From Amoebophrya sp. A120 (lineage: Eukaryota; Protista; Dinoflagellata): a stretch of DNA of 64,000 nucleotides. The notes under the pieces were generated by a model. It did not search any database. It was given only the letters and a program-made list of their open reading frames with translations, and was not told the DNA's origin. How positions within the stretch are numbered: the first letter of the stretch is position 1; each line of letters starts with the position of its first letter. The stretch covers positions 999,311 to 1,063,310 of the forward strand of contig CAJINV010000001.1 in NCBI GenBank assembly GCA_905178155.1, given 5' to 3'. A program made the position numbers and the translations under genes. Below, piece after piece: positions 724 to 64,000 of this stretch.

Positions 724-3700
724 TTACTTTGCCTTCGCGGTAGAAGTTCCAGTTCCTCCCGCGGCGGTGTGCAGCAATCGAGCGTAGATTCCTTGTTCCA
801 GTTTCGCGAGTTCGTTATGGAAGCGCCAGGATAGAAATCGCTCAAGTTGAAATGAAATAGTTTGTCATGCATAAAATGCAACGCAAAAATTGCCTCTATT
901 GCAGAGGACGCAAGGGAGGCAGATTGTAGTGCTGGGGAGGGTCGGAAATTGGGCTGGTGATTAGCATCACAGAGGGGAGTCTCTTTGCCCTAAACAGCAG
1001 CACAAACTGCCCTCCGGTACGGACAACATTTGTCATGCATCGACTAGAAACTGCGGGTCCAATTGGTATCGATTTTATGCATTACAAGTTATTCCAACTT
1101 TTTCGATTTCGATCCTGACGCCTCCATATTCGTCGTGCGTTCCGTATTCCGCGATTTTTCCCTGCGCCAACACGAAAATACAGTCCGAAGCCCGAATCGC
1201 GGACAGCTTGTGGGTATCAAATGTAAAAATGTCTGGGTCTGGAAGAATGCAACTTGTCATGCTAATTCTGAAGCATGCAAAAATCTGTGTTGCATGATTA
1301 CCAAAAGTCGTCCAGTTTTGACCAAGTCCGGAGGGAGTTTCTCATGCAGGATAGGCATGAGAGAGATCGCGCAGAATCTGTCACGCTAGGTCCTGCATTC
1401 CAGACCTCATGGGTCATGTAAAAGCTGCATGACAAATCGCGCACTCTTCCAGATCCAGACATTTTTACAGTTGATAGTGGGCCACCGTGATCGTGATCAG
1501 GCCGCGATCCCGGCTCTGCTTGCGGTCCGTAATTCTGTCGATGGCCTGCTGCACTTCGCGCTCACTTCGGTTATCTAACGCCGAAGTGGCCTCGTCCAGC
1601 AGCAAGATTTTCGGGCGGCGGAGCAACGCCCGCGCGATCGCGATCCGCTGCTTCTGCCCCCCGCTGATTTTGCTGCCCTTCACCCCCAACTTCTCTTTCG
1701 TCCAGGACAGAATGCGCCCGCCGCGCGCGTTTTTCGCAGTCGGCGCTAAATCGTGGCTCTGCGTCTCCGCCGGCGCCTCGATGTCCACGGGAGCTGCAAG
1801 TCCGGCGTGGAATAAATTCACGTCAGCCTCCTCCCACACGTCTGCCTTCTTCTTCCTTCCGCCCCGCTTGTTCAGCGAGGTCCTCGACGTTCCCTGCACC
1901 ACTTTAATCGGGGGCTCCGCGGCTAAAAAGTCCAGGCAGGCCATCTGCGCGACCCGCTGCAGCTCCTCGCGGGTGACGGTGGTCGGAGCCGGGTGGCCGT
2001 AGAGCAAGTTTTCCAAAGCGGAAAGGTCGAACACGATGGGCTCCTGCCCCACGTACCCGATTAGATTCCGCCACTTCCGGAGCTGCACTTCCAGGGAGAG
2101 ATCGTGCGCCGCGAGCGGCGTGTCTGTTGGGGTGACCAGCAAGCAACCGTTCCGCGCCGGGTCATAGTGGAGCCGGATCTCCGGCGGCGGTTTTTTAGAA
2201 CTCGCAGTTGGAGTAGTTGTGGCATTTTTATCAGTAGAAGTAGACCCCTTGATGTTTTTTATTCCGTTTGCAGCAGTTTTGATGTTTGCATCATCATCTT
2301 TTTTCGCACCAACAGGTTGTTTATTTTCTTGCTGTTCATTTTTCCCTTTATTCACATTGCCTTTCTCTTTTCCCCCGCCCGCCGCGCTTTCTACCGGCGC
2401 ACAAGAACTGGTGGGAGAAGGCAGAGTAGGACTAGGACCACCAGCAGAGGTGCTGCTACCAGTTGCGATGGGAGGTGTTGCTGGATTTATTCGACTTTTC
2501 CTCGCCTCAGCCGATCCGTCGCCAGTGTCGTCGCCGGACTTTTTTATTTTGCTGCCCTTCTTGCTGCCGACAGATTTTTTGCTGTCCTTACTCCCCGACC
2601 GAAACAGCTTGCTCTTACTCCCGGACCGGGAGAGCAGTGCCCTCTCGTCCACGATGCAGTTCGGGTCGTAGAACCGGGCAAGCAGCGCAAGGATGCTGCT
2701 TTTCCCGCTGCCCGTTGGGCCGCAGATCCCGATGCTTTGCCCCGCGGTAAAGTGGAAGTTCTGCAGGTTCCGCAGCACCTCCGTGTTCGGCCGAGTCGGG
2801 TAGCGGAATCGCACCCGGTCATACTATCCCACAGAAAAGGAACGACCATAAGGCATATTTGTATATTTATATAAGTATGCAAAACGAAATGTATACTGTA
2901 AGAAAAAACTGTCATGGTCGGGCCCATAGCGTGCTATTTAGGACAATATTCGATTTTTTTGTTTTTCTTTTTTTTGCATTTTGCACCCATTCTGTCTTTT
3001 ATTTCTGTGAGATACATACTCCACCTTACCGACCTCCGGAAACGAGACCCGGGGTTTGTCCGGCAAGTCCAGCAGCTCCAGTGGCGAGCCCCGCTTCACT
3101 TTTCCCTGCGAAGCTTCATCTACGTCGATTCTCGGCTTGCGGTCGATCACTTTGAACAGGTCGTGCGCCGCGGTGAAGGCGCGCCCGGTGTCCGGCCCGA
3201 GGTGCACCATGCGGCCCATTTCGCCGGCCAGGTTGTTCATCATGTTCACCGCCAGCGCGATGCCGGATAGCCACGTGCCGATGTACTCGTTTTTGAAAAA
3301 GTCGAACACCTGGCTCGGGGTCTGGATGTAGGTTAAGTCGTACTGTTTCACCCCCACCGAGACGAAACCAATCACGACCGCCCAATTTACCAGCGGCCCG
3401 AGGAAGCTCTGCATGCTGAAGCCGAGCCCTAGGATGACCGCGTTCTTCAGGGCGTCCGCGTCCTTATTGTCGCGGTGGGTTTTCACGCACTCTGCGTACT
3501 TCCGCGCGAACATGGGCTCCGCGCCGGACAGCGCCCGCACCGCGCGGATGTTGTACAAGCACTCGGAGGCGTAGTGCCCGGCGAGGGTGAGTTGCGGCGT
3601 CACCGCGTCCGCGGCCAGCTGCCGCATCATGCAGGCCATGATCACCCCCATGGACGCGAAGGAAACCAAAATCAGCAGCAGCATCAGCTTATCAACTGCA

Positions 3701-6700
3701 AAAATGTCTCGGTCTGGAAGATTCTGACACTTGTCATGCACGTTTTGCATGAGCCATGATGTCTGTGATGCATACCCTAGCAGTACAGATTTTTTGAGGG
3801 CTTCTTGATGCCTATTCCGCATGAAAAATGCCTTCTCAGCGTAGCAAAACGAGCACTCCCTTTGCTACTTCTGCAATACAGATTTTTTTGGAATCCAAAC
3901 GCAGCATCACAAGTTGCATTCTTCCAGTCCCAGACATTTTTGCATTTCATACAGCTTCCACTGGTTGATACAGCCCCAAACCACGGTGACCAGCAGCAGT
4001 GCGGCCGCCTGGAAGTACTATTGAAAGGAAAAACTCCCCCTCCCCATATCGAAAAGGCATGTTTCCGCGAATTTGTGTTGCTGATTTGAGGTCGCAAATC
4101 ACATTTGTCTTGCAAGAAGACAAGTGCAAAAGCTTCCGCCATATTATCGAGGCGGTTTGTCATGCCGTTGGGCCTAAAGGGAGGCCGTTTGCCATGCTGA
4201 GCAACTAGACCCATACGCCCCCAGCTAGCCGGCGAATCTGGCCGCCATGCCTTTCTGCAACACAAATTTGTGTACCCAAATCCAGCATCAGAAATTTCGT
4301 TTTGATATGGGGAGGGGGGATTTTTCCTTTTGATAAGTACAGGGCGAGATTCGGGCCGCACACGTCCGCGACGTTCTGCGTGGACTTCGACAGCAGGGTC
4401 GAAAGCTGCCCCGGCGAGTGCTCCGGGTGGTCGAAAAAGGCGAGTTCCAGCTTCAGCATCGCCCGCCAGGTCTGCTGCCTTAGGCGGTAGGTAATGTTCG
4501 CGCCCGCGAACGCCAGCGCGGCCTGGCCGCCGACCACGGCTACCGCGTTCACCACAGCGGCCACCAGCATCTTCCAGCCAGCGTCGCGGACGCCCACGTT
4601 CACCTCGGGGGCCTCCCCCTCCATCGTACTGGCTTGCTCCTGCATGGCGTCGCGGAAGAAGGTGGAGATCAGGGGACCGTTGAAGCCCTGCGCGAGGGAA
4701 AAAACCAAGGCCAGCACCAGCAGCCACCGCTCGGCGCCCTGGTTCAGCAGGAGCAAGCGGAGCCAGGGCTTCTCGTAGGTCTTCAGCACCTCCTTCTGCC
4801 GCTCCTTCTCCTTCGCCTCGTCCGACTTCACCTCGTTCAGATTCTCCATTTTTTTCTTCTCCGTCGCCTCGTCAACGACCTTCGGGAGGTGCTTGTCCAC
4901 GACCTGGGCCTCAACCTCCCGCGAGGTCTGGCGAGATGAAGCATCAAACTCGCTCGACTTCCGGGCTCGCGTGGGCTTCCCGGCGGAGGACAAGAGGGGA
5001 GACGATGATCGAAGAGACGTTTTTCCTTGTTCCTTTGTCGACAGACGAATTTTTCCCATATCTTGCTCCTCTTGCCCACCTACCCCCACTCCTGCGTCGG
5101 ACGACCGGCCTTCGCGGTCCTCTTCCAACAGGGTGGCTAACGTCGATTTCTTCGGCTTCATCTCCGGGGTCGCCCTTTGACGTTCCTCCTCAACGATCGG
5201 CGTGAGGATTAACTGCAGACTCGCGGGTGCTGTTGCCTCCTCGGGCTGTTGATGTTTCTCGTCGGTATTCAACGAGGAGGAGGACGGCGCACCATCCTCT
5301 CCTGCACCAGCTACCTCCGCAGCCTTTTCAACATCTGGCGCAACTGCAGCTGCAACGCCCCCGGCCAAGAACTCCCGCGCACTTCTACTCTCGTCGTCCG
5401 TCTCGATGGCGTGGTAGTTTGTTCCCTCCAAATAATCTGCTCGCCCGACGATTGGAGCCGCGGTCGTGCTCTGCAGGTCGTTCGCCACGGTCAACTGGTA
5501 GTACTCGCCCTGCTTTGCCACCAGCTCTTTGTGCGTGCCGGACTCGACGACGCACCCGTTTTTGAGCACGTAAATTCTGTCACTGTTCTGCACGGTGCTC
5601 AACCGGTGCGCCACCGTGATCACGGTGAGATTCTCGGACGCACAAATGCGGTCGATGGTCGCCTGCACCAGCCGCTCAGACTCGTAGTCCAGCGCAGAGG
5701 TCGCCTCGTCCAGCACCAGCAGCCCCGGGCTCCGCACCAGCGCGCGCGCGATGGAGAGCCGCTGCTTTTGCCCCCCGGAGAGTTGCGCCAAGTTCCCGCC
5801 GGACACGAAGGTGTCTAGTCCGTCTGGCAGATTCCGGACCACCTCGCCCACCTGGGCCTTGTCGCAGATTTTCAGCAGCTTTTCGTCGGACACCAGCGCC
5901 GCCTGCTCCGGCTCCATGCCGAACAGTAAATTGTCACGGACGGTGCCGTGAAAAAGCACCGGTTCCTGGGACACCCAGCCGATGTGCTGCTTCAGGTCCT
6001 CCAGGTCCAGCCCGCGTAAGTCCTTGCCGTTGTAGGAGATCGACCCCTGGTCCACGTCGTAAAACCGCGCGAGCAGCTGCAGCACCGTGCTTTTTCCCGA
6101 CCCGGACTGGCCCACCAGGGCCACCTTCTGCCCCGGTTCCACCGAAAAGGAAAAGTTCCGCAACACTTTCTGGTCAGCACCAGCACCCTCTTCTCCGGTG
6201 CTTAGTGCCTTCGTCATCATGCCAGAGGACGGCGCGTCGACATGGTCAACTACATTATCAGTCCGCCCAGCCTGATTTTCCGTTTCCTTCTCGAAGCCCA
6301 CGGGAGTTCTCGGATAACTGAAACTCACATTCTTCGCCTCCACCCGGATGCCGCCTTGGGTGAGCAACTTCTCGGAGCCGTTCTGGATTACCAAATTTTC
6401 CTCCTGGGCCAGCTCGACCACCCATAAGAGGTTCGCCAGCGCAATGCGGCCGCGGCTGTAGGCCTCGATCCAGGGGAGCAGCATGAACATCGACACCGTG
6501 GACATCATCACACCCGCAAGGCCCTGGAAGATGTCCTGCAAACCTGGAAATGACGTGGAAGACGAGGAAGATAATGTGCTATATTTTGCGTATAGCTGTG
6601 AAGTGGCTCCTGTGGTGCGCCCACTACTCTATTAATGCAGCTCGAGTAATACTGAATTATAAAGCGAGGACTGCTATGCACGAGGGAGCAGCAGCCCAGT

Positions 6701-8339
6701 TACTTCTTATTATCAAAATTTATACCGTAATTGACGCCGAACAGTGTGAAGGTGCCGTCCGCGTGCAGCAAGTAGAGCCCGGCGAACACGAAGGTCAGCG
6801 CGAAGGACACCTGGAAGCCAAAGAAAATGAGCGCGAAGCCGAAGGCTTTCGTGACGCCGATCCGTTTTTGCTCGGTGCGGGCGTCGTCAAGCAAACCTGC
6901 GTAGCGCGCCGCGGTCTCCTCTTGCGCGTTGCACGCATGCACCGTGCGGATGTTCGCGAGAGACTCCTCCACGATCACGCCCGCCTGTTCGTAATTCGGA
7001 ACGGTTTTGGACAGTCCCGCGCGCGTATGAGAGTGCACAACTCCCCCTCCCTCTCTACTTTTGTCATGCAAAATACCAAATTCACCGTTTGCCTCTTGGC
7101 AACTTTTGCATGACAGGTTCATCTGGTAGATCAAACAACACTACAATCCTGGGTGAAATTGTCATGGAAAACCCGCATTCTCGCCGACGCTTGTATTTTT
7201 GCTGCTCATGCAACACAAATGAGGGGGAGGGGAAAAGGTTGTGCATTTTCATAGCGCGCGACCCGGATGTACATGGACATGCCGATGGCGACAAAGGACA
7301 CCATTGGGATGGCGACGAAGGCCATCGGCCAGCAGGCGAACACGGTGTAGCCGAGGCCGCCCACTAGCATGAAGATGTATGGATTGTAAAAATGTCTGGG
7401 TCTGGAAGATTTTGAGATTTGTCATGCTTGTCTGGCATGACCAAAAAGTTTGTGATGCGTGTCCAAGAAGAGGCCCTTTTGCCTGTCATGCGAAAACGCA
7501 GTTTGTCATGCGAAAAACGCAACAGCAAGAAGCGCAGATATTTCTCATGCTTGCCTGTGCATTACAGAGCACTCACCATTCCCAACGCTGCATTACAAGT
7601 TTCCAGACCCAGACATTTTTGCAGTTGATAAGATGGAAGCCACCGCCATTTGCAGCTTCATGCCGACCACCTCGGTGAGGTTCCCGATGTCCTCGTTTAG
7701 TCGGGTGGGGACCAGCAGCGCATTTTCCTTGTCGAACCAGCCCATGTCGAGCAGCAAGACGCTGCTGAAGTAGGCGCTGCGCCACTGGTAGCTGAGACTC
7801 TCGTTCGCCAGCCGCAGGTTCAGGGACGCGACGAAGCCGAACACGGTCGCGCCGAGGGCGAACACGAGGAACCAAAACAGCTTCGACCACAGCCGCGCGC
7901 CGATGTCGTCCGCCTCCGCGGTCTTCCAGGCCTCCATCGCGACACTGAGGGGCTCGGGCGGCTGAATCACCGGGACCTGCACCCTCCACAGCTCGGTCAT
8001 CGTGGCGAACCCGATAATCATGGGGGACGCCTGGCACAGGCCCTGCAGCAGCGCCCCGAGGCACCCGCACCACAGCATGCGGCGTTCCTTGGCGGTGGCA
8101 AACTTGAAAAAGCTTCCCAGCTTGATCTCCTCGGGATCGATCTTCCGAACCTTGTGATGATGCTTGGTCTTGGTCTCCTTCGCAAGCTGGTCAAAATTTT
8201 GACCAGTAGACCGATTTTCAACATCGTCCTCGGTCTCATCCAGAACGCCGACGGCGGTGTCTGCAACGGCGTCCAGCAGCGGCAGGGTCTCGTCATTTTC
8301 GCCTATCGTGGGCAAGTAGCTCCTGAGGACAGAGGACAT
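724..8339 (-). CDS. ABCB/MDR-type full-length ABC transporter (TMD-NBD-TMD-NBD), spliced
   Basis: Walker A motifs GQSGSGKS and GPTGSGKS, signatures LSGGQKQR and ISGGQKQR, Walker [11 protein letters not shown] in both NBDs. Removing 7 TIR introns plus a GT-AG intron (~6544-6726) gives continuous ...TVAHKLSAIR...[18 protein letters not shown]...; stop TAA at 724-726. Confidence 0.93.
816..1128. mobile_element. TIR introner (singleton type)
   Basis: TIR TATGGA(A/G)GCG(C/T)CAGGAT; DR TTCGT; removal gives GTHDE|LAKL. Confidence 0.9.
1215..1476. mobile_element. TIR introner family A
   Basis: TIR TATCAAATGTAAAAATGTCTGGGTCTGGAAG; DR GTGGG; removal gives TVAH|KLS. Confidence 0.95.
2825..3014. mobile_element. 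TIR introner (short TIR, AT-rich, old)
   Basis: TIR TATC(C/T)CACAGAAA; DR CATAC; removal gives KVEY|DRVRF. Confidence 0.85.
3690..3951. mobile_element. TIR introner family A
   Basis: Family A TIRs; DR CAGCT. Confidence 0.95.
4019..4335. mobile_element. TIR introner family B
   Basis: TIR TATYRAAAGGAAAAA...CCCCCTCCCCATATC; DR AGTAC. Confidence 0.95.
7026..7253. mobile_element. TIR introner family C
   Basis: TIR TATGARARTGCACAAC...CCCCCTC; DR GCGCG. Confidence 0.9.
7378..7630. mobile_element. TIR introner family A
   Basis: Family A TIRs; DR AGATG. Confidence 0.95.
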
Positions 8340-9249: not shown

Positions 9250-12200
9250 CTAAAAGTCGGTGAAAATGGTTCTCAACCCTCCGCCAATCGCAGCTAGCAA
9301 GCGGCGCTTTTCTTGCCAGAACACCCGCTTTTTCTCGGCCGCGGTCAGCGGGCCGGGTGGCAAAGGGAAGGACGCCGTGTGCCCATTGTAGGAGTACCGC
9401 ACGGCTGGCTGCCCTTCAACACCGTCACCGTCTTCAAGTAGATCTCCCTCGTGCAGAAGTTGTTGTCCTTGATGTAGTCCTCTTCTACCTACGTCAGAAG
9501 TGGTTGCTGTCCTAGTACCACCAAAAATTTTACTACTATTCCCAGCGCTGCTCTCCTGCACCACAATCCGCAGGGGCAACGTGGAAGAACTTCCTTCCCC
9601 GGTGTCGTCGTCGAAAAAAGCAGCAGAGCTCTTCGCCAATTCGTCGTACAGAAACCCGGGTGGTAAGGCGACTTCCAAGAAGACCCGAGATGCAGTTGCA
9701 GCACAACTTGGAGCTGCATGCTTGTTCGAAGATCCTGTCATCTGGAGGGTGCTGCCAATGGACGCAGTTCCTGTAGAAGTACTAACGCTAGTACCAAACG
9801 CACCAGTCGGAGGTGGTGAAAAACTCGATGAGGATGAAAACTTCTCCTCGACCACCTCTGAACTTCGCAAAGCCCCAGAAAAGGCCCGAGGAGGCGGAAA
9901 TTTCGGTGCTGACGCGGAGTTCTCCTCAGCTTGCTGTACCTCCTCAATAGCCCCGGGGGTTTGAGTACTTCTAAATGAACTGCCCGCTGATGCTTCTCCT
10001 CCTCCTCCCGGTGCTATGTTCATGCCCGGATGAATACTGCTGGAGGCCGTGCTGTTCGTGCTATCGGCGGGCGACGCCGCGTGGAAAGGCTCTTTTTGCT
10101 CGGAACAAAGCGGTTCTGAAACTATTCCGCCGGCTGGCGCTTCCTCCTCTGGTTTGGTGCTGGACGCCATGATTCTTGCGGGCGGCGGTGGACCGACTTT
10201 CGGAAGTTCTTCGCTACCTGGAGGAGGTACTATTGGCTCAGCAGTTCTTGGCCCTTCTTGTTCACTATGCTGCGTTGAACTCGTAGTTGCGACCATTTCA
10301 ACACCTTGTTGCGAACTTCGTTCTCCGTTGCCACCAGCTGCCCCACCACTCGGTGCTGATGTACTATCAACAACCCTCGACGATGAAGCAGGTTCCTGCT
10401 CGACGCTTCTACTGGTAGAAGTACTAGTTCGACTTTCCTCCTTGGCCCCCGCCACAACTTGAACTTTCCGTGCGCCAAACTGCGTGAGCAAAAAATTTTC
10501 CGCGGCTTCCGGCTGCACCCGGCGCACGTTGCTGGTCCCTCGTGGTTTTTCTTCAGCAAGATCATTTCTTTCCAAATCCAACTCCTCCTCCCCCGACATC
10601 CACCGCAGCACTACCACTTCCTCGATTTGCAAACTGTGCTTGAAGCACCGCAGCACGTCGGGCCAATCCGAAAAGGTGCGCGTAAAGGTTTTCGAACTTA
10701 TTGCAGCTTTACTGCCACTGGCTTGATGTCCGGCTTCTGGTTCTTCTTGCAGTCCTCGTCCAGCTGAGCTACAATTGTCCTGCACTCCCGACGGAACCAT
10801 CGTGGTGACGAGGCAGATCTTGTCGCCGACCCGGAACCCCAAGCTCGCCGCGAACTTGGACACGCGGCGGCTTTGCTATGGATTGCAAAAATGTCTGGGT
10901 CTGGAAACTTGTAATGCTAAAAAGGAATGATAGACGCACTGCAATACGCAGCTTGCTATGCATGACAATTTTTTTGGCTGCCATGTGTTACGTATTCCGC
11001 ATCGCAAACTGCGTTTTTGCATGACAAGTAAGAATGCCGCTTCGTGCGTATGCAACACAAACTCTCGAGTCATCCCAGACAAGCATGACAAACTTCAATT
11101 CTTCCAGACCCAGACATATTCGCAATTCATATTTGCCGCGTCGTGCCCATGATGTCCATGCCCCAGCTGGTCTGCGTCGTTTCGCGCTGCAGCTTCAGCT
11201 ATCCTGTGAAAAAGTATCGCACTCGTACTAATTGCAGATATGCATGACAAATCCAACTTTCTACCTGAAATAGCATGACAAATTGCATTTTTGTTCTTGG
11301 GAAAATTTGTAATGCAATTTATACTAGTACGATAGTTTTGCAATGCATATCAGCACCCGGAGCGCCACCTGCTTCTTGGCCGAGACGTCGAGCATGCGCA
11401 TGTAGTGCACCTGCAGCATATCGGCCCGCTCCGGCATCCGCTTCACGTGGGTCAGCAGGTCCTGCGGTTCCAACAAGCCGCCGCGCATGGACGGCAGCAC
11501 CAGTCGCTCGCACCCGGGCACCACCGTCACAACTTGCTGCTCCAGCTGCTGTCTCCCATGCAAATCCTGGGTACACGTCTTCAGCACTTCGCGCAGCACT
11601 TATTACGATGAAAAATGCCCCCACCCCGGAATTTTCAGAAGTTTGTCATGCAAAGCTTCCAAATGAAAGCTTTTTGTCTTGCATAAAAGGATTGCGAGCG
11701 TTCCTGATACAGAATCTGGGTGCTCAAGGCGCCTTGTGTATAACAGATCCAGCTGCTGTTGGGCTACTTCGAAACACAAATTTGACCTCTTCAGCATGGA
11801 AAATTTGTGATGCTGAGATATGCAAGACGGGGAATGTTTCTGTTGGAAAGGTTTGCAATACAAATGCTGCCAAGCTGGGGCATTTTTCATTGTAATAGCA
11901 CTTTTTCGGGCAAGAAATCGACCCGATCCACCACGACTGCGGCGTTGGTGCCGACATTGTACACGTTGGGGCGGTGCAGAATCAGATTGATCACTTTTTC
12001 CCGGCCGAACACCTGCAAGATCCTTTCGGGGTCCGTTTCCCCGTTCGCGACGCGGATCACGTCATCCTTCTGCGGTCGGAACGGCTGCAACCGGGCATGC
12101 GCCTCGTTCCACCGAAAAAGTGCCTTGTCGCTGTAAATTTCCGCCATGAACAGCCGTGGGGTCCGGCTACTGCTCCCCTGAGGACCCGACTTCAGCTGCA

Positions 12201-15200: not shown

Positions 15201-16007
15201 GCATGGCCAGTGAGAGCAGTAGATTTTGTGCTCCGCGGAGATGGCATTTGTCATGCGGAATAGGCATGAGGAAGCGCTCTGCAAATCCGTGATGCTAGGC
15301 CATGCATTACAGGCATTATGGATCATGCAAAATATGCATGACAAATCTTGCAATCTCCCAGACCCAGACATTTTTGCATTTGATATGTCCAGCCGGGAGG
15401 TGCCGTGAAAGACGTGGAGCAGCACGAATTTCTCGCTGTGCTTTGATTCGAAATCGAGGAGCTGTTTCACGGTCGTGATGACCAGATCCGCCTTATTCGG
15501 ATCCGGCCGCCGAGGCTGCCGGGAAGACGGGCCTGGAGTGGAGGTTTGATTTCTTGTTTGCGCAAAAATTATTTGACAAAACAATCGAAGACGAAAGAAC
15601 CATGGAAAAACTACTTCCTTGCATTTATTGTGTCTGGGAGTTCATCTACTTCAACGTACAAATATTATTTTGAAAAGAAAAATCCAATGAGTAGTACTCT
15701 GCGTCTGCACCCCCCGGTCGTACAGTCTTCGCCTGTTCGGGTCGCGCAACACATCGTATGCTTCCTTCACCTGCAAAAATTCCGTGTCGGAGCCCTTTTT
15801 GTCCGGATGCGCTTCCAGAGACCGTTGGCGGAATGCGCGCTTGATCTCTGCCGCAGTCGCGGACCGGTTGATGCCAAGTACGTCGTAAAGGTTTGCCGTT
15901 GCGGCCACTGCATAAGTAGTACCGACTCCAAGAACGTTGAGCAATGCTAGGAGCGTCACCGCGATCCCCAGAAAACCAGTTTGTCGCCACAGTAGAAACA
16001 CAGACAT
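9250..16007 (-). CDS. DnaJ-domain membrane protein (signal peptide, J-domain, thioredoxin-like region, TM helix, PDZ-like segments, low-complexity tail), spliced
   Basis: J-domain LYDVLGINRSATAAEIKRAFRQRSLEAHPDK with HPD motif; TM segment FFVLVCTILFFAI. Frame is continuous across the TIR introns checked (8 in the gene). Thioredoxin and PDZ calls are pattern-based and tentative. Confidence 0.75.
10877..11131. mobile_element. TIR introner family A
   Basis: Family A TIRs; DR TTTGC. Confidence 0.95.
11200..11349. mobile_element. TIR introner (shortest, 150 bp)
   Basis: TAT...ATA ends, imperfect TIR; DR TCAGC; frame restored. Confidence 0.85.
11601..11897. mobile_element. TIR introner family B-like
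   Basis: TIR TATTACRATGAAAAATGCCCC; DR GCACT. Confidence 0.92.
12352..12623. mobile_element. TIR introner family A
   Basis: Family A TIRs; DR AAAAA. Confidence 0.93.
12755..13036. mobile_element. TIR introner family D
   Basis: TIR TATCCTG....AAACGTCCCCASCCCATA; DR ACAAA. Confidence 0.95.
14121..14381. mobile_element. TIR introner family A
   Basis: Family A TIRs; DR TCCGC/CCCGC (synonymous mismatch). Confidence 0.93.
14673..15077. mobile_element. TIR introner family B with nested 71-bp insert
   Basis: DR TCGGA; body similar to 59889-60199; insert 14725-14795 lies between 12-bp repeats. Confidence 0.93.
15123..15385. mobile_element. TIR introner family A
   Basis: Family A TIRs; DR TGTCC. 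Confidence 0.95.
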
Positions 16008-51297: not shown

Positions 51298-54277
51298 TCA
51301 CCACGTTCGCTTCCTTCGCCGCGCCGACTTCCGGTGTTTCGGAAGGGTAGCCGTCCGCCGGAGGGTTTCCCCCGACAGGCTGCTGGCCCGCCGCATCTCG
51401 TTTGGTAGGACCGTGCCGACAAAGGTCTCCAGCTCGTCGTACTGAACATGCAGACGCTGCAGTGCCTGCGACAGCTGCAGCGCTTCGAAGGGGGAGAAGT
51501 GGGACGCGACGTCCAAGTCGCGTCGCAGTTGTTGGACAAGCAGGTGGAGCAGGGGAGGGTGGGAAAACTGCACCTTGCCCATGGCATTTATGTACTTCAA
51601 AATATCGGCGGTGGACAGGAGCTGATCATCGTCTCGTCGTCCACCCGAAGCGGGTGGTAAAAATGCCGTTTCCGCCGCCCCGTACTGGCTGGTGCTGGCC
51701 GATGCTGAACCAGTACTACTACTAGAGAGCTGCTGTCCTCGTGGTCTCTCCTCGTAGCTATCTGCAGTTCCTGTGTTACCTCCGAGTGAAGGCGAACACA
51801 CAGCACGGCCTCGTCCGGGAGGCAGCCGCTGGAGTTGTAGTACACATCGGGAATGTAGCAAGTCTGCGATGCCCCGCAACAACTCCTCCTCGCAAACGTG
51901 GACCTTTCCGTATGCCTGGGCGACATTGACCCAGTCGGCCGTAGACACGAAGGTAAACTGGTTCCCGGATTATCGAATGCAAATAATGTGGCTGGGAAGT
52001 CCTCGTGTGGAAACTTCTGATGCTGAAATGCGGATGAGATCCCAGCTCTTGCAGCCAAGCATGACACGTTTTTGGACCGCTTTCTGATGCCCGGTACGCA
52101 TCACAGATTGCGCTTTCGCACGAGAAAGCAAGTGACTCTTTTGCTGCTCGTGCGTCTTTCATGAATGGAACACATGCATTTACAAGTTCCAACCCTGCAC
52201 ACCCTGAAATATTTGCAGCTGATACGGAAAACTCTTCCACCAAGTCCTCCAGCTCCTCTTCTTTCCGTTCCGCGGCCGTCCGTGTCTGCGCGGCCCGCCG
52301 GCGCAGCTTCCGCAACCCCTTCTGACTCTGGCACGGATCATCTTCCTGAGCAAAATTTATTCGAGTAGACAGGGTCGCGGAAAAGACGTCAGAGTCGGCG
52401 TGTCGTGATGGGGATGAGGATGCCCCGTCGGACAGTACGGTTTGCCCCTCCTGCGGCAGGAAGGAGCGGAACACGGGCCCGAAGTACTCCTTGAATAACT
52501 TCTCGTCCTTCACCTGGAACTTTGCCAGCCCCATCGCCAGATTCAGCACATGCTGGAAGGAGCAGTGGGAATTTCGAATCCCCTCCAGCATCCCGCGAGC
52601 CGCGTCCTGTTGCTTCACGCGCGCGCAAAGGCGCGCAATCAACACTTCGTTGACGACGCCGGCGCGGGCGAACGAGGTGATGGTCTGGCTCATAGCCGGA
52701 ATGTCGAACGCGTGAAGGTGCCGCCGAATCAGAATGCCCAAGCGGTCGAACACGTCCGTCGCGTGTTGCGACACACGAAACTTTGCAAAACCGTACGCGA
52801 GCTTAGATAACACGGTCGGAACGGCGGCCACGTCCCACACAGAACAACTCGTTGCACGAGGCTCGGTTTTGTTGTTCGTCGCACTGCTGGCAAAAGTACT
52901 TCTTGGTTTTCTGTTTCCCAGTAATGCCCCGTGATCGCTCCAAAGAAACCGATGCGCTTTCCCCCCGTACTGCGGGATGCAGAACGTCTCGCAGCTTTCC
53001 AGAAAGGCGGTGGGGTCCGCGAAATCTCGCAGACGGCACGCCACCCTATCTAACGCACCGCCGTCTTCTACCCGAAGTTTAGCCAACGCGTGCACCAGCT
53101 TCGCGCACTCGGGGACGGACAACCCTGTACAGTCTCGGAACCCGCCACGGAGAACACCATCGCGGAAAAGCCGCAGCACAGTGTTGAGCTGCAACACGGC
53201 CTCGTTATCTTTATGCGTTTCTCCGACAATCCGCTGCAGCTCGGCCAATCCCACGCAGGCATCCGCAATCTGCACCCGGTCCGCCTCGGTCCAGGTGGTT
53301 GTTGCGATTACGTTTTTCAGCCAGGGTATGTCGAAGAGCTCGGAGAAAATTTCCAGATTCGCACGTTCCGGATGTAGATTTCTTGTTTTATTCCGGTGTA
53401 AGGAATCCAAGCATCCTGCTTTCCTTTTCCAGTTCGAATACAGGGCGAAAACCTCGCTCCAAAACAAGGACGCTACTGCCGATGCGGAGGAAGAAGCGCC
53501 AGCGTCGGTCGCATTGGTGCAATTTACAGCATGTTGTAAGAACTGTTTGCGCATGAACCCCTCGCCCAGGGTCGTATCATACAAAGAAAGCCGGACGCAG
53601 TGAGCCCAAAAGTCAATTCCGAACTGCTGGCTCATCTCGGCCGCGTCTGGATCATTGACAAGCGAATCTTGCACCTTCAGCACCTGACAGTATGTGAGTG
53701 TAGTAGAAATTGCGGTGTAACTGATCGCGCCTCATCGTGAATACGTTAGAAGAACCTGATGAAAACGCACGCGTATACGTACCTGGTTGAAGAAGTGCAA
53801 GTAGGACTCCGCGCTCACTCCACTTTTGTCCCACTGTAGTGTCACAAGTAGAAAGTGCAGTCCCGCCCTGGCGTCGTATGCCGATGTGAAAAAAAGTTCG
53901 CGGAACCGACCCTGCAGCTTCTTCCAAAACGATTGATCTATCACTCCGGCCTTGTTTCCCGCGTGTGCCTCCCGCGCAAGCTGGGCGACGTTTTTGATTT
54001 CGCTAGGCAGCGTAGCTATGAACTGGTCCACACGGGAGGCGGGGTTTGCTGGCGTAGCCGTCGCTTGCCTGGACGAAGCCAAGCTCCGGTGCCCCGCTCC
54101 GGCCTTTGCGCCCGTCTCCTCGCAGCGGTGCTGCTTTGCAGCTTCCCTCGCCTGCAAGTAGCGAAGGTACTCCACTGCATCGCGACGGGCTTCGGGGGTG
54201 ACATGTGCCGCTGTACTAAAGTTACGGCGCCTCCACGGCATGCGGCCACGCGCTGCGGCGCGATGTCTCTGCAACAT
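51298..54277 (-). CDS. Helical-repeat (HPR/OPR/RAP-associated-like) organellar RNA-binding protein with putative mitochondrial presequence
   Basis: Repeated units LSKLAYGFAKF, MSQTITSFARAGV, VLNLAMGLAKFQVKDEKLF, WVNVAQAYGKV and ILKYINAMGKV; Arg-rich N-terminus ending RRNFST; one GT-AG intron (~53686-53781) and one TIR intron. Confidence 0.65.
51971..52224. mobile_element. TIR introner family A-like (diverged)
   Basis: Ends TATCGAATGCAAATA / TATCAGCTGCAAATA; DR CGGAT/CGGAA; removal gives EEFS|GNQFTFVSTADW. Confidence 0.85.
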
Positions 54278-55337
54278 GTCGAATAAGGCCACAACGCGGT
54301 GGCTTTCCGATCATTTTTTTCACTGCGTGGAGAAACCTCGCTTAACTAAGTGGGCTCACTTCCACAGACTCACCTACAGAAACGCTCCCTTCCATTGGTT
54401 GTAACGCATGAGAGGGGGGAGGGTCTGAAGAGGACGCAATACAACACAGCGCAATTATAATTGTTCACAAACAAAGCGATCGCGTTTCGTATCTCGAGCC
54501 TCACGGAAACACGAGTAGTGTGTGTTTGGGACAGATCGCTGCAAGTTCTACAAAGGAAGAACTCTTCGACAAATTATTTGTGTCTCCAGGCTGACAGACG
54601 CGAATACAAAGGACCTCGGATCAAGAACTGCATCGCGGATTTATTTCAGAAAAAATAAAATGGATAAAGTCACAGGTGCAACCGAATAGCTCTATCCGGT
54701 TGATACACGAGAAGAAGAAAAACCGAAGGCACAGGGAGCAGCATACTTAATACCGATAAAGCACGGAGCGAAGGAGCCGGGTTCGTGGGCGTTCACAAAA
54801 CGGACCGCATGAACTAAAACAGGAACGTTCCACCTGTCAAACTGGACAAATCCAGCGCACTAAGCGTGTAAACTCGCACGTCCCCAAGGATTCTAAGCAC
54901 ATCTGACCCAGCACACTTGCAAGGTCTAAAACCCGACACGAGCTCTTCATCTTTTTATCACGGGAAACCATAGACTCAAATTACACAGCTGCAACCTTAT
55001 CAAAACTATCGAAACAACACGCGCTATCTTCTGTACTGTAGTAAAACCATTGCTATCAGAGGAAAAAAGAACTTATACCATTGCTATCTGAACTACGGAA
55101 AAACCTTGAACTTCTGCTATCTGAACTACGAACATGAAATCTGAACTACAACTAAGTACGTAAAAATGAAAAAAATAAAATGAAAAAATAAAACGGTCTT
55201 CAACTCGGTGTCAAGTAAGGCCACGAAAGTTTGCTTGGAAAGTGCGCACCCAGTGGTCAAGTGCTGCTTCCTCTCGGGTGTGCTGTGACACGGGCGGAAA
55301 GTGGGTGTACTACCAAAAATCTTCAAACCTTCAGCAC

Positions 55338-58300
55338 TCAAAAGCCCTTCTTCGCGGAATCCAAAATGCAATCGCAGTCGTCGCCGGTCTTCTTGCTGAC
55401 CATTTTGTTGGACTTGCTATCCAGGATGCAGTCGCAGTCGTCCTTCTTTTTCTGCGCCTTCTCTTTCTGCACCACCATGGCCACGGTCTTCGAGGGTTGC
55501 TTGGAATCCAAAATGCAATCGCAGTCGTCTCCGGTCTTCTTGCTGACCATCTTGTTCGACTTGCTATCCAAAATGCAGTCACAGTATCCTGATTGAAAAC
55601 GTCCCCACACCAGAGCTCAAGATGGGAATTCTGCTAGACAAATCACACAGCTTTGGTTGTTTGGCATGACAGGTTTATTTCCCTCGTAGTGTGATCCTGT
55701 TTAGCTAGCTCAGAAGCATCACAGATCTAGCATAGCATGCTGATATCAGCATGACAAATCCCAAAACACGATTAGCAAATGCTTCTCACAGGGCTCCGCA
55801 TGAGAAACCATTTTGGCATGCAGAATTGCATGACAACTCTGGGGTGAGGATGTTTTTTCACGGGATACGCAGTCGTCCTTCTTCTGCTTCCTCGCCAGCA
55901 GTGGCTTTTTCTCCGCTGGCTTGCTCGGCGTGGCGCGATATGCATTGCAAATGTCGATCTGGGTCATGTCGCAGATCATATCTTTGCGAGATCATTAGTC
56001 ATGCCGGTCTGGCGTGAAGAGGACTCCGAGTTTTGTATTCCGTGGCTTCCTCGAAGAAATCTGTTGTTGCCTGTCCTGCAAATAAAGAACGTTCAACTAC
56101 ATTTCCGCAGCGTTTTTTGCTGACCAATCCCTGATTTATGCAACATCACAGAGCTTTTCCGAGCAGGACCCAGATGAACTATTTACACTTGATACGCGGA
56201 CCTGCAGGAAGGACTCCTCGTCCGAGCTGAGGATCTCCAGCGCGTCCTTCAACCCCGCGATCTCGGCCTCGCGCCGCTTCTGGCGCTCCTCGTAGCTCAT
56301 CGCCTTGTTGGCGCAGGCCTCCATGACCCCCTTCAAAAAGTCCGTGGCCGCCTGCAGCGCCTTGTTGGCCTCGGTTAAATCCTCGGACATCATGCCGATG
56401 CTCTCCTTCACGCCCGCCTTCTCCTGCGTCTTGCCCTTCACCTCGGCCTCCTTGGTGGCTTTCGCGACCTGGGACTCCTGCATAAACTTCTCATACTTCT
56501 CCACCGCGTCCGACTCTGCAGCCTCCGTCTCCTGCTTCAGCTTCTCAAAGTCCTCCTGGGCGGTCTCCAGAATGCTGATGATGGTGTTCGCGGCGTCGGT
56601 CTGCGGCTGCTGCAGAAAGCTGGTGCTCTTGCCGTAGAACTCGGACAAGGCGGTGATGGCACCGTTGATGGCCTCGACGGACTCAGCACTGTCCTTGATC
56701 ACCGCGTCATTCTCCTTCTTTTCCTATCAAATGCAAAACTACTGTCTGGTTCCGGAAAGTTGCAGTGCTCGAAGGCGTACTAGATGCTCAGCAAACTGCA
56801 ATATTACCCGACCAAGCATGACAAGTTTATGAGCTTCTGCGCTGTGGTGCGCATAATTCCGCATGGCAAGATGCGCAAGACCGGCAAGACGGTGCTTTAT
56901 TCGTGCATTTATTGCACCAAAGAACTCAAAGTCGTGTGAAATGAGCATGAGAAATTATTCGCTATCTTCCAGACCACCAAGACATGCTTTATTGCAATGC
57001 ATATTTCCTTCCCACGGATGGCCGTGCGCTCCTTGACGTCCGCGGCTAGCTCGGCCAACTGCGCCTCCAAATCGCTGATCTCCGTGCCCAGCTGCGCGAA
57101 CTTGGCCTCGGCGGCGTCGACCCGGCTCTGCAGCTTCTTGGACTCGCCCTTGCGGAGCTTCAGGTCCTTGGTGCCCTTCTCCTTGTCGGCCTTGCACTTG
57201 GCCTCCTTGGAAGCCTCCTTCGCCGCCTCGTCTTCCAACTTTGTGATCATCTCCTTAATCATGCCACGTACCTTCACAAACGGGTCGGCCTGGGCGCTGT
57301 TGGCGGCCTGGATCAGCGCAAATTGGTTGTAGGTGCGCCCCAGTCGGCGGAGCATCAGGCTCACCTTCGCGCGCTTCTGCGTCTCCTCGGAACCAACCTC
57401 GTCGGAAATCTGAAATTATAACCAAAGGGATTTTTATATGGTGGAAGCGAATTGCGATTAGAACTTCCCACAGGTAAAAAAAAAATTTTAAATTCAAATG
57501 CAATGAGCATGCCGTGGGTCTAATCTTCATGCCCTATCATCATATGCAGCGTCTGAAAAAAATGAGGAAGATGTAAATCGCAACACTTTATGACCGCAGT
57601 GATCGCTCAACGTGGTCTGTCAGATAAATTTCCAATACCTGCAAGAAGGATTCGCCGCCGAACTTGCCACTGAGGATCTCGATCGCCTGCCCGAGGGCGC
57701 CGGACTCCTGGGTGGCTTCCTCCTTCCGTGCGGCCCAGCTCTTGGCCTTGGAGTCGCACTCGGCCTTGGTGTTGGCCAGCTCCTCCGTGTCGGACTTCAG
57801 CACTTCCTCGGCGGACGCGAGGTCGCCGCCCGCGGTCTTACCCGCGGCCTCGGCCTTGGCCGCGTTCTCCTTGGCTGCTTCCATTTGTTCGGTTTTGCTG
57901 GTCTCCTGATTCTTCAAATCCTGCATCAGCAGCTCAAACTCGTGGCGGGCCTTGAGATCTTTTTCCCGAATACCAGCCAGAACCTCGGCGTTCTTCTCCT
58001 GCATGCCCTGAATCGCGTCCAAAGTTTATGGAGATGAACAAAACTGCCTCTTCGATAAGAAAGGAAGAGATTCTTTAGATTTGCCAATATTTTGTTTCCG
58101 AACTTCTTCATTATTCAATGCGAGAACAAAAGTTCATCGTTGGTCTCTCGTGTTGAACAAGGAAAACTACTCATGTTAATTTTAAAATACAACCCGCAAG
58201 ACAAAAGATTTCGCAACTATTATAACAGTTCCGTGGGTGATGTAGTTCTCGTTAAACTTAAAAGCAGTTGTTTTCAGTCGCATAGAATTCCGCCGGACTT

Positions 58301-60214
58301 GCTCTGGTAGCTGGACGACACTGCTTGCGGCTGGCCCAGTATGGCATTCTCAACCGTTACACTCTGAACTGTCACATGAATTTGTCACGCAAGACTACCT
58401 TAAGCCGCCAGATGATCAAGCGGCTTCGCATGACAAATCCCCGAGAAGCGAAGCAGCATCCAAGTCTGTGCCAAATCTGTGATGCGAAAGCAGCAAGCTT
58501 GCCCTACTTTTGGCTGTTGCTGTTCTTGCATCACAAATTCATGGAACAGTTGAGAATGCAACAGTTGAGAACGCCATACCCAGACGGAGCTCGTTCGACT
58601 CCTCCAGGAACGCCTTGATCTTTTGTTGGCTCTCCGCGTCCATCGCAACTGACTCGATGATGGTGGACAGTGCCGTGACGGCGTTCTGGGCTTCCCGAAC
58701 CGCCTTGCTGGACGCGATTCCGTCCGTCTGCGTGAAGGACAGGGATCGCTTCAGGACGGAGTATGCCTTCTGCAGCATGGTGTCGGCCTCCACTAGCTCC
58801 GCCTCTTCCTTTTGAAACGTCGCGTGGGCCTCCTTGCGTTTTCTATGCAGGGAAAATCCAACGACAATAAAAGTCATGCCGAACTGTAGCATGTGCCTTA
58901 ATCAACTCGAAGTAGAGTATACTACGCCTCATTATCATTTGATCCAGATTGTTCTGCTTACAGCTAGTGCTCCGCCCACGCACAAAGACCATGCGGTGCA
59001 GAATACACTTGTATCTCTATGCCGTTGGATTTCATTTTTCCCTTTGCGTACTCATCAGCAGCCTTTGTTTGCTCGCCCTGCAGTGTGGCAATCTCCGGAG
59101 TCAAAGTAGCAACCTGGAGGGAGAGTTGATGATGAGACTTTTAGATTTACAGCTGTTGGCACTCACTGTACTGCAAGTAGATCGTCGTAATTTCTTGCCC
59201 GATAATCATCCATCTCTTTCTGCTACATGTTTTTTATTCTGACAATCACAGTAGTTCTAGTTTCAATAGTACTACTTATATGCTGTTTCACTTTTTATTT
59301 CCCTATGAATAAAACTAGCGCAAAATAAATCTCAAGACCTCGTTCGCGAAGCCGGAGGCCTTTGCTGCTTCGTTCTCCACAGTTGCTTTTAACTCCTCAA
59401 CCTTCTCCCCGCCGTACTTCACGTCCGCTTCTCCTTCCGTGGTCGTTTTGATGCACCAATTCTCGAATTCCTCGGCCTCTTTGTCGCCGTCGGTAATTTC
59501 CTGTTCCACCTTCGTCTTCATGTCCGTGAGTAGAGAAATCACTTTTTTGATGCCGCTGTTGCCCGTATGGATTGCAAAAATGTCTGGGTCTGGAAGATTG
59601 CAACTTGTCATGCTAAATCCGACTCATGCAAAAATCTGTGTTGCATGAGTGCAAAAAGCTGCCCACTTTCGGCCAACTTGGGAGGGAGTTTCTCATGCAG
59701 GATAGGCATGAAAGAGACCTCGCAAGCTCTGTCATGCTAGGTCCCGCATTCCAGACCTCAAGGGCCATGGAAAACCTGCATGACAAGTTCACACTCTTCC
59801 AGACCCAGACATTTTTACATTTGATAGCCCGCTTCCGCCCGACTTTTCAGCGCGACCACGGCGCCCGTCGCGCCGGACGCGACGAGAATATCAAAATGAA
59901 AAATCCCCCCTCCCCATATCAAAACGGAAATCTGTGATGCAGATTTGTTGTCACAAATCAGCTTTGTAATGCTACACGGGAAAAGATGCGGACTGTAGTG
60001 CTGGGTGGCGTGGGGAAGCCTTGCATGTTCAGCATGATAGGAGGCAGCTGGGAGTGGGAAACAGCATGACAAATTGCCTGCAAATGAGGCCACGACTGCG
60101 GCTCTTGGCCTTCTAGCATGACAAGTCGATTTGTGACCTCAAATACAGCATCACAAATTTCGTTTTCGATATGGGGAGGGGGGATTTTTCCTTTCGATAG
60201 AGAACACGACGCAT
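55338..60214 (-). CDS. Secreted coiled-coil protein (dinoflagellate 'SFLQ'-type) with Cys-repeat C-terminal tail, spliced
   Basis: MRRVLVASGATGAVVA...SGIKKVISLLTDMK...FENWC, QPQAVSSSYQSKSGGILD, ADPFVKVRGMIKEMI, SYEERQKRREAEIAGLKDALEILS and several SFLQ motifs; 7 TIR introns plus GT-AG introns. Confidence 0.8.
55355..55584 (-). repeat. Coding tandem repeats encoding DDCDCILDS(K) units
   Basis: Four CDCILDS units and two KSNKMVSKKTGDD linkers. Confidence 0.9.
55585..55867. mobile_element. TIR introner family D
   Basis: DR CACAG/CGCAG (TGT/TGC, synonymous). Confidence 0.92.
55939..56194. mobile_element. TIR introner family A-like (diverged)
   Basis: DR CGCGA/CGCGG (synonymous); frame restored. 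Confidence 0.85.
56725..57003. mobile_element. TIR introner family A-like (diverged)
   Basis: TATCAAATGCAA...TTGCAATGCATA; DR TTTCC. Confidence 0.88.
58027..58284. mobile_element. TIR introner (highly decayed)
   Basis: Ends TATGGAGATGAACAAAACTG / TATGCGACTGAAAACAACTG; DR AAGTT/GAATT; removal gives SGGI|LDAI. Confidence 0.7.
58340..58578. mobile_element. TIR introner (singleton type)
   Basis: TIR TATGGCRTTCTCAAC; DR CCCAG; removal gives LRLG|QPQA. Confidence 0.9.
59566..59826. mobile_element. TIR introner family A
   Basis: Family A TIRs; DR GCCCG. Confidence 0.95.
59889..60199. mobile_element. TIR introner family B
   Basis: DR GAGAA; inserted after the fifth codon of the gene. Confidence 0.95.
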
Positions 60215-62573: not shown

Positions 62574-64000
62574 TCACGGAGACTTGCTGTCTTCCCGACC
62601 GAACCAGCGTTTCACTGTGGTCGCAACGGTGTTCAGCACCGTAGCCGCCCCGGCCGGTTCCGTCGTGTCGCCCTTTGCGATATGCATTGCAAATATGTCT
62701 GGACGTCTGGAGAGATGCAGTTTGTCATGCGAACTTTCGATCAAATAAAAAAAAAATCTGTGTTGCGTAGAAGCCAAAAGTTTTTTGCACACTTGTTGCT
62801 AATTATAGCAACAGGCGTGTTTCTCATCAAATGGCGTAGGCATTAGGAAGGTCATCTCGCGAATTTATCTGCGAAGATGCTTCTGCGTGCAATAGAGACA
62901 AGCCGGTTGTAGTTGTTCGCTTGGATGCATGACGAATAGTCCTGAGATCTTTCAGACCCAGACATATTTGCAGTTGATACGCAAGCTCTGGACCCCAGGT
63001 TGCATGGTTTTGGATCAGCTCCACGATCTCAAAATGCCCTTCGCACCTGCAGATTTAGAAAAATATGTTGCAATCATGTGAGATGGCGCTCGAAGAGCTA
63101 CATACTGGACAAAAATTAGATGCAAACGACCAAAATTTTTATATGAGTTCATGCACGTCCGCTGCAACACGGTGGCGGTGCCACCCAACATTCTTCACAA
63201 CCACAAGACAAGTGCCTCTTTCCTGACCACACGGAAACAGAACATACTTCGCCAGGTCCAGGCAGGTTTGCGCGCCGCGGTCCTTGCAAAGCACGAGTCT
63301 TTTGGTGCAGTGCTTGTGGTTCATCAGAAACTGTACGATGTCCATGAATCCCTTTTCGCAGGCGGCGTGCAGGCAGCTTGTGCCGTACTTAGTTTGCGCG
63401 TTTATCAGGTGAGGTGGAAAATGCTTGTGGTCCAGTAGGTACTCCACGATGTTGGTGTGTCCCGCCTCGCAAGCCGAAAACAAGCATGTTGCGTGGTACA
63501 CATTGAGCGAATGCGTGATCAGTTCCTGAAATTGGAAATAAGGTTCTCTTGTCTTTTCGAAGGTCTCCTAGAAAAAGTTCTTGCTCCGAGGGAGTGATGT
63601 AAAAAAACGGTGGAAGTCATGAGACTCATCATTTTTTGATTGTTTGGGTATTAAGCACTACTGAACAAAGCCAAATAAACCTGTCACAAAATAAACGTCA
63701 GAGATGAATCTTCTACAACGCACCTTTCTCTTCCCGGTGTTGTCGTTTGTGGTGCAGAAATTCATCAACGATTCGACGACGTTCAAGTGGCCCTCGCTGC
63801 AGGCGAGCTGCAGACAGGTCATGTCCTGTTTGTTCTTGGAGAAGAGTAGGTTGTACTTTTCGGCCGCGGGTGACTTCACCAGGTATTCCACAATTAGCAA
63901 ATGCCCCTCGGCCGCCGCCACGTGCAGGCAAGTGTCCCCGAGATTGTTGCGGTACATCACCAGCTATCAAATGCAAATATGTCTGGGTCTGGATCTAGAA
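62574..64000 (-). CDS. Ankyrin-repeat protein (3' part; continues beyond window)
   Basis: Ankyrin motifs GDTCLHVAAAEGHLLIVEYLV, TCLQLACSEGHLNVVESL and GTSCLHAACEKGFMDIVQFL. Confidence 0.85.
62681..62979. mobile_element. TIR introner family A
   Basis: DR TGCGA/CGCAA (both mismatches synonymous). Confidence 0.88.
63965..64000. mobile_element. TIR introner family A, left end only
   Basis: TATCAAATGCAAATATGTCTGGGTCTGG; truncated by the window edge. Confidence 0.85.

Follow-up and report, generated by a model that had tools for sequence, protein, structure and literature searches.

Introners across the window

The window analysed here, a 64-kb stretch (64,000 nucleotides) of contig CAJINV010000001.1 of Amoebophrya sp. 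A120, carries eukaryotic genes across its length, nearly all of them on the minus strand, which are broken up by short elements with inverted ends. A motif-blind search for terminal inverted repeats (TIRs; here TAT...ATA inverted ends) gave 44 calls. The final curation dropped four weak calls and added five elements by hand where motif copies lay uncovered, each of the five having matching TAT..ATA ends. The resulting 45 elements measure 150-665 bp each and 12.7 kb in total, leaving 51.3 kb of non-element DNA. All but one start with TAT, the exception being 40749, which starts with TAC, and the flanking 5-bp duplication is exact in 35 of the 45. An A-run is present in the ends of families A, B, C, E, F and I and absent from those of D, G, H and J.

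These elements are known A120-type introners, as they combine TAT-start TIRs, a 3-5 nt direct repeat (5 bp here), non-canonical removal and repeated families. According to the excerpts of the papers on which all our citations rest, the ends of A120-type introners start with TAT, followed by seven variable bases and an A-run (PMC7789003). The likeness extends to the TAT ends with, mostly, seven variable bases and an A-run, the short direct repeats and the non-canonical removal (PMC7789003, PMC12130899), and the published family lengths of about 106, 150, 209, 234, 252-260, 278 and 305-321 bp fit as well (PMC7789003, PMC12130899). Moreover, a window exon is 100% identical over 133 amino acids to P0001, which its source names as an A120 protein.

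A metagenome scan with the family A end returned 157 stretches, and 151 loci with 598,550 bases were used. This set, which is biased to family A, yielded a further 367 elements, for a total of 412 with the window, and 378 of these grouped into 20 clusters of at least three members. Removal of elements was followed in X1-X4, transcript-like contigs from one sample whose RNA status is conjectural; X5 contigs run into elements. The window elements are listed below, with motif sites given as the offset of the G of TGC from the element start, preceded by the strand.

816..1128, H-family TIR element: +54 -150 +222 -265
1215..1476, A1 introner: +47 +78 +132 +171 -214
2825..3014, E-type element, decayed: no motif sites
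3690..3951, A0 introner: +49 +81 -92 -131 -185 -216
4019..4335, B8 introner: +62 +94 +146 +178 -240 -268
7026..7253, D introner: +43 -84 -186
7378..7630, A2 introner: +49 +80 +113 +133 +172 -183 -214
10877..11131, A2 introner, orientation opposite to 7378: +40 -85 -124 -144 -177 -208
11200..11349, I-type introner, 150 bp: -44 -75 +115
11601..11897, B2 introner: +50 +81 -172 +212 -256
12352..12623, A0 introner: +78 +131 +170 -181 -219; removal inferred from X1 contig piece coordinates
12755..13036, C introner, sites on + strand only: +39 +118 +151 +203 +234; removal inferred from X1 contig piece coordinates
14121..14381, A1 introner: +47 +132 -214; X1 contig lacks 266 nt (element+5)
14673..15077, B-type introner, 405 bp: +51 +134 +166 -260 -312 -344
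15123..15385, A0 introner: +48 +79 +133 +172 -183 -215
17258..17566, C introner: +98 +147 -158 +180 +230
17671..17935, A-type introner: +40 -51 +55 -84 -228
18420..18844, A1-type introner with ~150-bp insert: +49 -92 -133 -348 -379; X1 contig lacks 430 nt (element+5)
20514..20771, A7 introner, sites on + strand only: +48 +83 +137 +176
20815..21024, F introner: -49 +71 -124 +164
23706..23970, A1 introner: +52 -95 -134 -188 -219
26811..27062, A6 introner: +48 +79 +112 +132 +171 -213
30121..30389, A1-cluster introner: +48 +79 +133 -220
31070..31734, A0-type introner with ~400-bp insert: +47 +78 +132 +171 -182
33746..33982, D introner, decayed: -53 +143
34499..34813, A1 introner with internal duplication: +49 +98 -141 -184 -238 -269
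35705..36023, C introner: +88 +143 +176 +237 +268
37624..37811, E-type element: +47 +78 -147
38464..38742, C introner, orientation opposite to 12755: -49 -80 -129 -162 -210 -241
38803..39078, C introner: -80 -133 -166
39152..39417, A1 introner: +49 -92 -131 -189 -220
39697..39966, A0 introner: +46 -143 -221
40749..41074, B8 introner: +51 +88 -182 -233 -265
41131..41391, A1 introner: +47 +78 +132 +171 -214
41450..41723, C introner: +71 +129 +165 +197 +223
45231..45491, A1 introner: +47 +78 +132 +171 -182; X1-X4 joint skips 266 nt
48134..48452, B8 introner: +82 -144 -176 -259; X1-X4 joint skips 324 nt
51971..52224, A2 introner, decayed: +52 -90 -129; joint skips 259 nt
55585..55867, C introner, orientation opposite to 12755: -50 -81 -133 -166 -215 (+236 weak) -245; joint skips 288 nt
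55939..56194, A-like introner, decayed: no intact internal site; abundant contig, joint skips 261 nt
56725..57003, A-type introner, decayed: -93 -138 -222
58340..58578, G introner: +50 -90 +145 -190
59566..59826, A1 introner: +47 +78 +132 +171 -214
59889..60199, B13 introner: +51 +83 -177 -229 -261
62681..62979, A-type element, decayed: +49 +85
63965..64000, further A-type element, left end only, cut by the window edge

The internal motif and its helical phasing

An earlier note on this DNA had claimed that the word YTGTSWTGC is multiplied within the element families and rare elsewhere, and the counts bear this out. The window contains 133 copies (71 on the plus and 62 on the minus strand), of which 130 lie in the 45 elements and three outside, corresponding to 10.21 versus 0.059 copies per kb. 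The 44 motif-blind TIR calls already covered 123 of the 133 copies, and 42 of the 45 elements carry at least one strict copy. Two of the three outside copies (48922 and 58196) fall in decayed non-canonical introns or intron candidates, and the four canonical introns that were checked contain no site. Element copies are far above dinucleotide shuffles, which yield about one copy per family set, with 75 observed in family A against an expectation of 1.35, and the three copies in non-element DNA are near the expected 4.1. In the metagenome loci, 790 strict copies lie inside called elements and 321 outside; since 216 of the latter are near a terminal-repeat word, the metagenome element catalogue is incomplete.

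Refined on the element set, the motif reads RAWYYTGTSATGC, and its matrix finds 207 sites inside the window elements versus five outside. At least two sites are present in 404 of the 412 elements and none in four. Their density is about one per 47 bp, or roughly one per 45-50 bp, longer elements have more sites (rho 0.65), and the array is found even in elements of 109 bp. Among the 20 family consensuses, all contain GCATGA and 18 contain GCATGACA, and the motif provides the top common word at each length from 6 to 9. The dominant spacing between sites is 31-33 bp, and in family C (consensus C5), A7 and E14 all sites lie on a single strand. The facing inverted pairs 10-15 bp apart that the earlier note had described were not recovered at that distance: among strict facing pairs with a gap of at most 60 nt, two have a gap of 8 nt, 11 have 38-50 nt and none has 10-15 nt. 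With a looser matrix, nine of the 45 elements contain a tight facing pair with a gap of 6-8 nt.

In some A and I elements, among them those at 12352 and 55939, the terminal TATGCATTGCAAA scores 14 as an outward-pointing degenerate motif copy. The termini as such were rejected as motif copies, as this fits only some A and I ends and most other ends do not score.

Across the 20 family consensuses, the distances between sites are concentrated near multiples of about 10.4 bp in all site orientations. Same-strand pairs (R = 0.58, n = 38) and convergent pairs (R = 0.65, n = 27) both peak at 10.55 in a scan of 7-15 bp (p = 0.001, here and below from 1000 random placements for pair phasing), whereas divergent pairs (n = 22) reach R = 0.57 near 10.8 but have their scan peak at 15 (p = 0.001). 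When related families are collapsed to six groups, the mean cos is 0.51 versus a null of 0.03 (maximum 0.24 of 2000), and each leave-one-group-out run of the six groups gives p = 0.002. The fitted period is 10.41 (bootstrap 10.33-10.48), or 10.38 (10.24-10.48) with ten representatives, and the phasing cos at 11 bp falls to about -0.1. Phasing persists with the strict motif YTGTSWTGC (0.57), with thresholds from 7 to 15 and in 15 window elements alone (0.42); the maximum among seven control 3-mers is 0.16. Groups A, B/D/H/J/G and F/K are significant on their own and I is borderline. Outside the motif, A/T-dinucleotide phasing is raised in one of seven bins (0.39 versus about 0.26).

Adjacent spacings include 10, 20-22, 39-44, 50-54 and 62-65 bp in mixed orientations. 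Across single ends, the first inward site groups at 39-40, 47-51 and 62 bp from the end, and its offset moves by about one turn between relatives (D 40, G 49-50, J 60-62; B13 51 versus B8 62). As the A-form helix has a value of 11 bp, the 10.4-bp period is the repeat of B-DNA and not that of RNA. This phasing is new and was missed in the earlier note.

Ancestry, conservation and the RNA reading

The word and its spacing could have been inherited from one ancestor with a repeated unit, the spacing now being a relic without present function. The dominance of the 31-33 bp spacing is in line with such an origin, and the families are not all as dissimilar as the earlier note had held. Alignments that persist after masking of the motif include D~J (z 8.9), B8~H (7.2), D~B13 (7.0) and F~K (6.1), and at z>4 nine families chain together. 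On the other hand, only 11 of the 190 consensus pairs align at z>6, and the masked comparison leaves 6-10 unrelated groups among the 20 consensuses, so that dissimilarity holds between these groups and not for every pair of families. The phasing survives the collapse to six groups, and the varied spacings in mixed orientations are not expected from one tandem unit.

Conservation largely refutes this explanation, which we consider very unlikely. The motif core provides the most conserved internal columns of the elements, its change rate relative to background being 0.21 on internal, that is spreading, branches and 0.39 on terminal branches, or 0.23 and 0.41 when matched for trinucleotide context. 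Because of this excess, ancestry does not explain the conservation. Hence, of the possibility that the families are simply collinear homologues, the part that stood is that some share internal ancestry; the core is nevertheless conserved beyond background.

In D/G/J, B/H and F/K a common internal core is combined with terminal repeats that differ beyond TAT, which suggests that terminal repeats were swapped or remodelled while the phased core was retained. Among private insertions in the 331 aligned introner copies, those of 3 nt dominate with 129 events, those of 1 nt numbering 56 and those of 6 nt 36, which points to a strong bias of this lineage towards inserting trinucleotides.

The earlier note had also proposed that the motif copies act in RNA, either as side hairpins of a common fold or as pre-mRNA sites for a splicing protein. 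Some features agree with this: one motif strand reads GCAUG, which we take to be an RBFOX-type word, many copies that face in opposite directions are paired in predicted folds, as are the terminal repeats of all 20 consensuses, and nine window elements have the tight facing pairs described above. However, a conserved RNA structure was rejected, since the six tight inverted pairs show 20 compensatory double changes versus 324 single and 16 double mismatches (340 cells), with 68 G-U, and the sites of C5 and A7 lie on one strand, with motif-motif pairing of at most 0.08 in the predicted folds. Furthermore, the variants GCATCAC, GCAACAC and GCATTAC are common, the period is 10.4 and not 11, and a search of Rfam gave no match.

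The removal of elements also speaks against a role in RNA. At seven directly seen joints in X1-X4, the element plus 5 nt is missing (266, 430, 266, 324, 259, 288 and 261 nt), and two further removals (12352 and 12755) were inferred from contig piece coordinates. Family C copies lie in minus-strand genes in both orientations (4 and 3) and are removed in each, 12755 being the inferred and 55585 the direct case, so that the RNA carries opposite words. In addition, abundant contigs lack three non-canonical introns that have no intact internal site (55934-56194, 47556-47847 and 48819-49067), the latter two having been removed precisely. This orientation-independent removal, together with removal without intact sites, means that the motif is not required for splicing and argues against the suggested RNA-binding splicing factor. 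An action of the copies in RNA is thus the least probable of the explanations, with a very small chance of being right, and the motif is best read on double-stranded DNA. At that level, the earlier proposal of binding sites for one trans-acting factor agrees with the 10.4-bp phasing in both orientations and with the most conserved internal columns.

After removal of the elements, the minus-strand frame is stop-free in 44 of 45 cases, a weak test as several frames are often open. The matches in the raw RNA runs X8 and X9 were all partial repeats from other loci; these runs added no information. The introns 47556-47847 and 48819-49067 belong, with 58022-58284 and 2820-3014, to a set of old non-canonical introns or candidates whose ends have decayed and which resemble present-day families little or not at all; they appear to represent the final stage of introner decay. 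Canonical and non-canonical introns are mixed in two neighbouring, highly represented coiled-coil genes (window 46900-50740 and 54870-59890), the second of which has relatives with Pfam PF27870.

A candidate DNA-binding factor and comparable systems

Our comparison leads us to lean towards reading the RAWYYTGTSATGC copies as phased binding sites for one DNA-binding protein, probably a transposase or a bending cofactor, that would aid mobilisation. Four parts of this reading are conditional: binding by a protein, the double-stranded state of the DNA that it binds, the bending of that DNA and a role in mobilisation. One protein would occupy the copies along one helix face of a short element, and the bound protein would bend the element of 109-320 bp such that the two TAT ends could meet for transposition. 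One factor would serve families whose terminal repeats diverge after the first three bases, and it is proposed that all families keep the TAT ends, the 5-bp duplication and the motif because of this common factor. The enzyme would likely be an integrase-related DDE transposase, a class suggested by the ends, by the duplication and by family 38 in the literature, which is ~810 bp long and has TA/TA ends and a 5-bp duplication. Binding probably continues once an element has inserted, since the decay of the core is slowed to about half of background even in old copies.

Several results weigh against such a mobilisation factor. Groups B2, C, E, U and I19 are not individually significant for phasing, and families C5 (R 0.35) and B2 (R 0.39) are weakly coherent. 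A simple loop-closure model predicts both length periodicity and end phasing and is weakened by two null results: a 10.5-bp period is absent from total element length (R about 0.2), and there is no clear phasing between the ends and outward-pointing sites (p = 0.10). The 74 listed metagenome loci share one record prefix and are therefore probably a single assembly and not independent organisms. Neither the window nor 598 kb of loci yielded a transposase or a long coding element, the search for integrase-like open reading frames (ORFs) having been made by eye and with crude motif patterns over 847 ORFs, with no Pfam scan; nor do the excerpts of PMC7789003 report a transposase in A120. Finally, a pure mobility signal is expected to decay neutrally, and the protection of the core in old copies would count against it. 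In copies with at least three private indels the core stands at 32/1382, or 0.45 of background, compared with 0.85 (39/893) for TIR positions 17-32 (p = 0.009); outside family A this contrast gives p = 0.0004, and within family A alone it is not significant (p = 0.18). In inserted copies the sites may retain a role or be shielded; alternatively, the changes counted as private may be inflated by mobile sublineages that the sample does not include.

Because of this protection, the main rival is a role in host chromatin or in the marking of introns. A chromatin or DNA-binding protein of the host could read the phased array on inserted copies and help the host to tolerate introners, for example as a DNA mark for excision during transcription in a cell from which U1 small nuclear RNA (snRNA) is reported to be missing, or by positioning nucleosomes or DVNP, and the motif would be kept as copies without it would harm their genes. 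The private core rate of 0.45-0.53 in young and old copies alike (0.46-0.55 when context-matched), against relaxation of TIR positions 17-32 to 0.75-0.99 in old or non-A copies, fits this role, and a DNA-level mark would act in both orientations, as observed. The excerpts of PMC7789003 add that U1 snRNA was undetected in A25 and A120 and, likewise in line with a host role, that A120 has no known transposase. Nevertheless, three introns are removed without an intact site, conservation is stronger on internal than on terminal branches, and the private changes may include those of unsampled mobile sublineages. The array is also present in elements down to 109 bp, and, nucleosomal DNA having a repeat of about 10.2 bp, the fitted period of 10.33-10.48 lies slightly above this value. 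On this evidence we regard the host role as unlikely. Less likely still would be a phased code on double-stranded DNA that is read by one protein serving twice, in assembly of the transposition complex and in flagging inserted copies for RNA excision. If true, it would be at the DNA level that introns are defined in this lineage, for which a lack of U1 snRNA is reported.

Long TIR-bounded candidates for a coding partner (metagenome L021:505-1608, L027:632-1465, L057:3862-4492 and L074:6001-7031, and window 31070) resolved into ordinary elements plus inserts or neighbours. The first belongs to family H and carries, near its right end, ~770 bp of inserted low-complexity sequence; the 238-codon open frame of this candidate appears non-coding. 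The TIR pattern had no match in viral contigs. Positions 18600-18750, the ~150-bp insert of element 18420, recur at 94% identity in L002:4338-4476, and this insert may be another small mobile sequence nested in introners. A 1.24-kb insertion at window 24498-25830 starts with TATGAAG, lies in a minus-strand coding region between direct duplications of ~45 bp and holds an internal inverted repeat of ~84 bp (25187-25270); it has no motif sites, no match to an introner consensus and no other copy in the fetched loci.

Helically phased motifs near transposon ends have a precedent in the IS607 family, where IS1535 TnpA binds 9-bp phased motifs 20-60 bp from the end cooperatively and forms a paired-end complex (PMC6188088). 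The likeness lies in the short, helically phased motifs near the ends; IS1535 has, in contrast, a prokaryotic serine transposase, no TIR or target duplication and direct repeats at one end (PMC6188088), whereas the introner sites occur in both orientations over the whole element and their word is common to many TIR families. Subterminal motifs are bound on the miniature inverted-repeat transposable element Emigrant (Emigrant/Lemi1, PMC1636448) and on Muta1 (PMC5499845). These elements and hAT/Hermes (via PMC6188088) are, like introners, non-autonomous TIR elements with internal repeats, which in those cases are bound by the transposase. Introners share with such arrays the multiple short motifs near and inside the ends and the conservation in spreading lineages (0.21). 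The repeats in Emigrant, Muta1 and hAT are, however, family-specific and often half of the TIR, with variable spacing in hAT, whereas introners use one phased word across unrelated TIRs and inside introns.

The TAT..ATA ends and the 5-bp duplication point to the integrase-related DDE clan, in which no named superfamily fully fits. TDD-4/5 (Ginger2/TDD) share the 5-bp duplication, IS3EU/GingerRoot have TA..TA termini and IS481EU has TNT..AYA termini (PMC2836005, PMC10045372). Ginger1/Ginger2 were rejected for their TGTNR termini (PMC2836005) against TAT here, and IS3EU/GingerRoot, despite fitting termini, for a duplication that is usually of 6 bp (PMC10045372), compared with 5 bp here and none of 45 exact at 6. 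IS481EU differs in its duplications of about 4, 15 or 25 bp (PMC2836005, PMC10045372). For one A120 family that has a Copia-like ORF, the published annotation reads "5-bp TSD, TA/TA termini" (TSD, target-site duplication; PMC12130899).

While the elements are already published, the internal word and its phasing are the new part. The excerpted text presents terminal and direct repeats only and classes most families as "TIR DNA, unknown" (PMC7789003; 56 of 58 A120 rows of PMC12130899). A shared internal word, phasing and excess internal conservation are all absent from the excerpted text of PMC7789003, PMC12130899, PMC9860276 and PMC11282704, figures being outside this scope, and our literature search returned no paper describing this motif or its phasing; the word is thus, like the phasing, not in print in the literature examined.

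Both the movement of A120 introners, for which no transposase is known, and their splicing, with non-canonical ends and no U1 found, are open questions according to the excerpts of PMC7789003. A common 13-bp word on one helical face offers a direct bait for the factor by DNA pull-down, and the phased word provides a signature for finding an autonomous partner. The results suggest that many nominal families with different terminal repeats may form one mobilisation system. Moreover, the phased array may exemplify a rule by which transposons close in size to the DNA persistence length (109-320 bp) are built.

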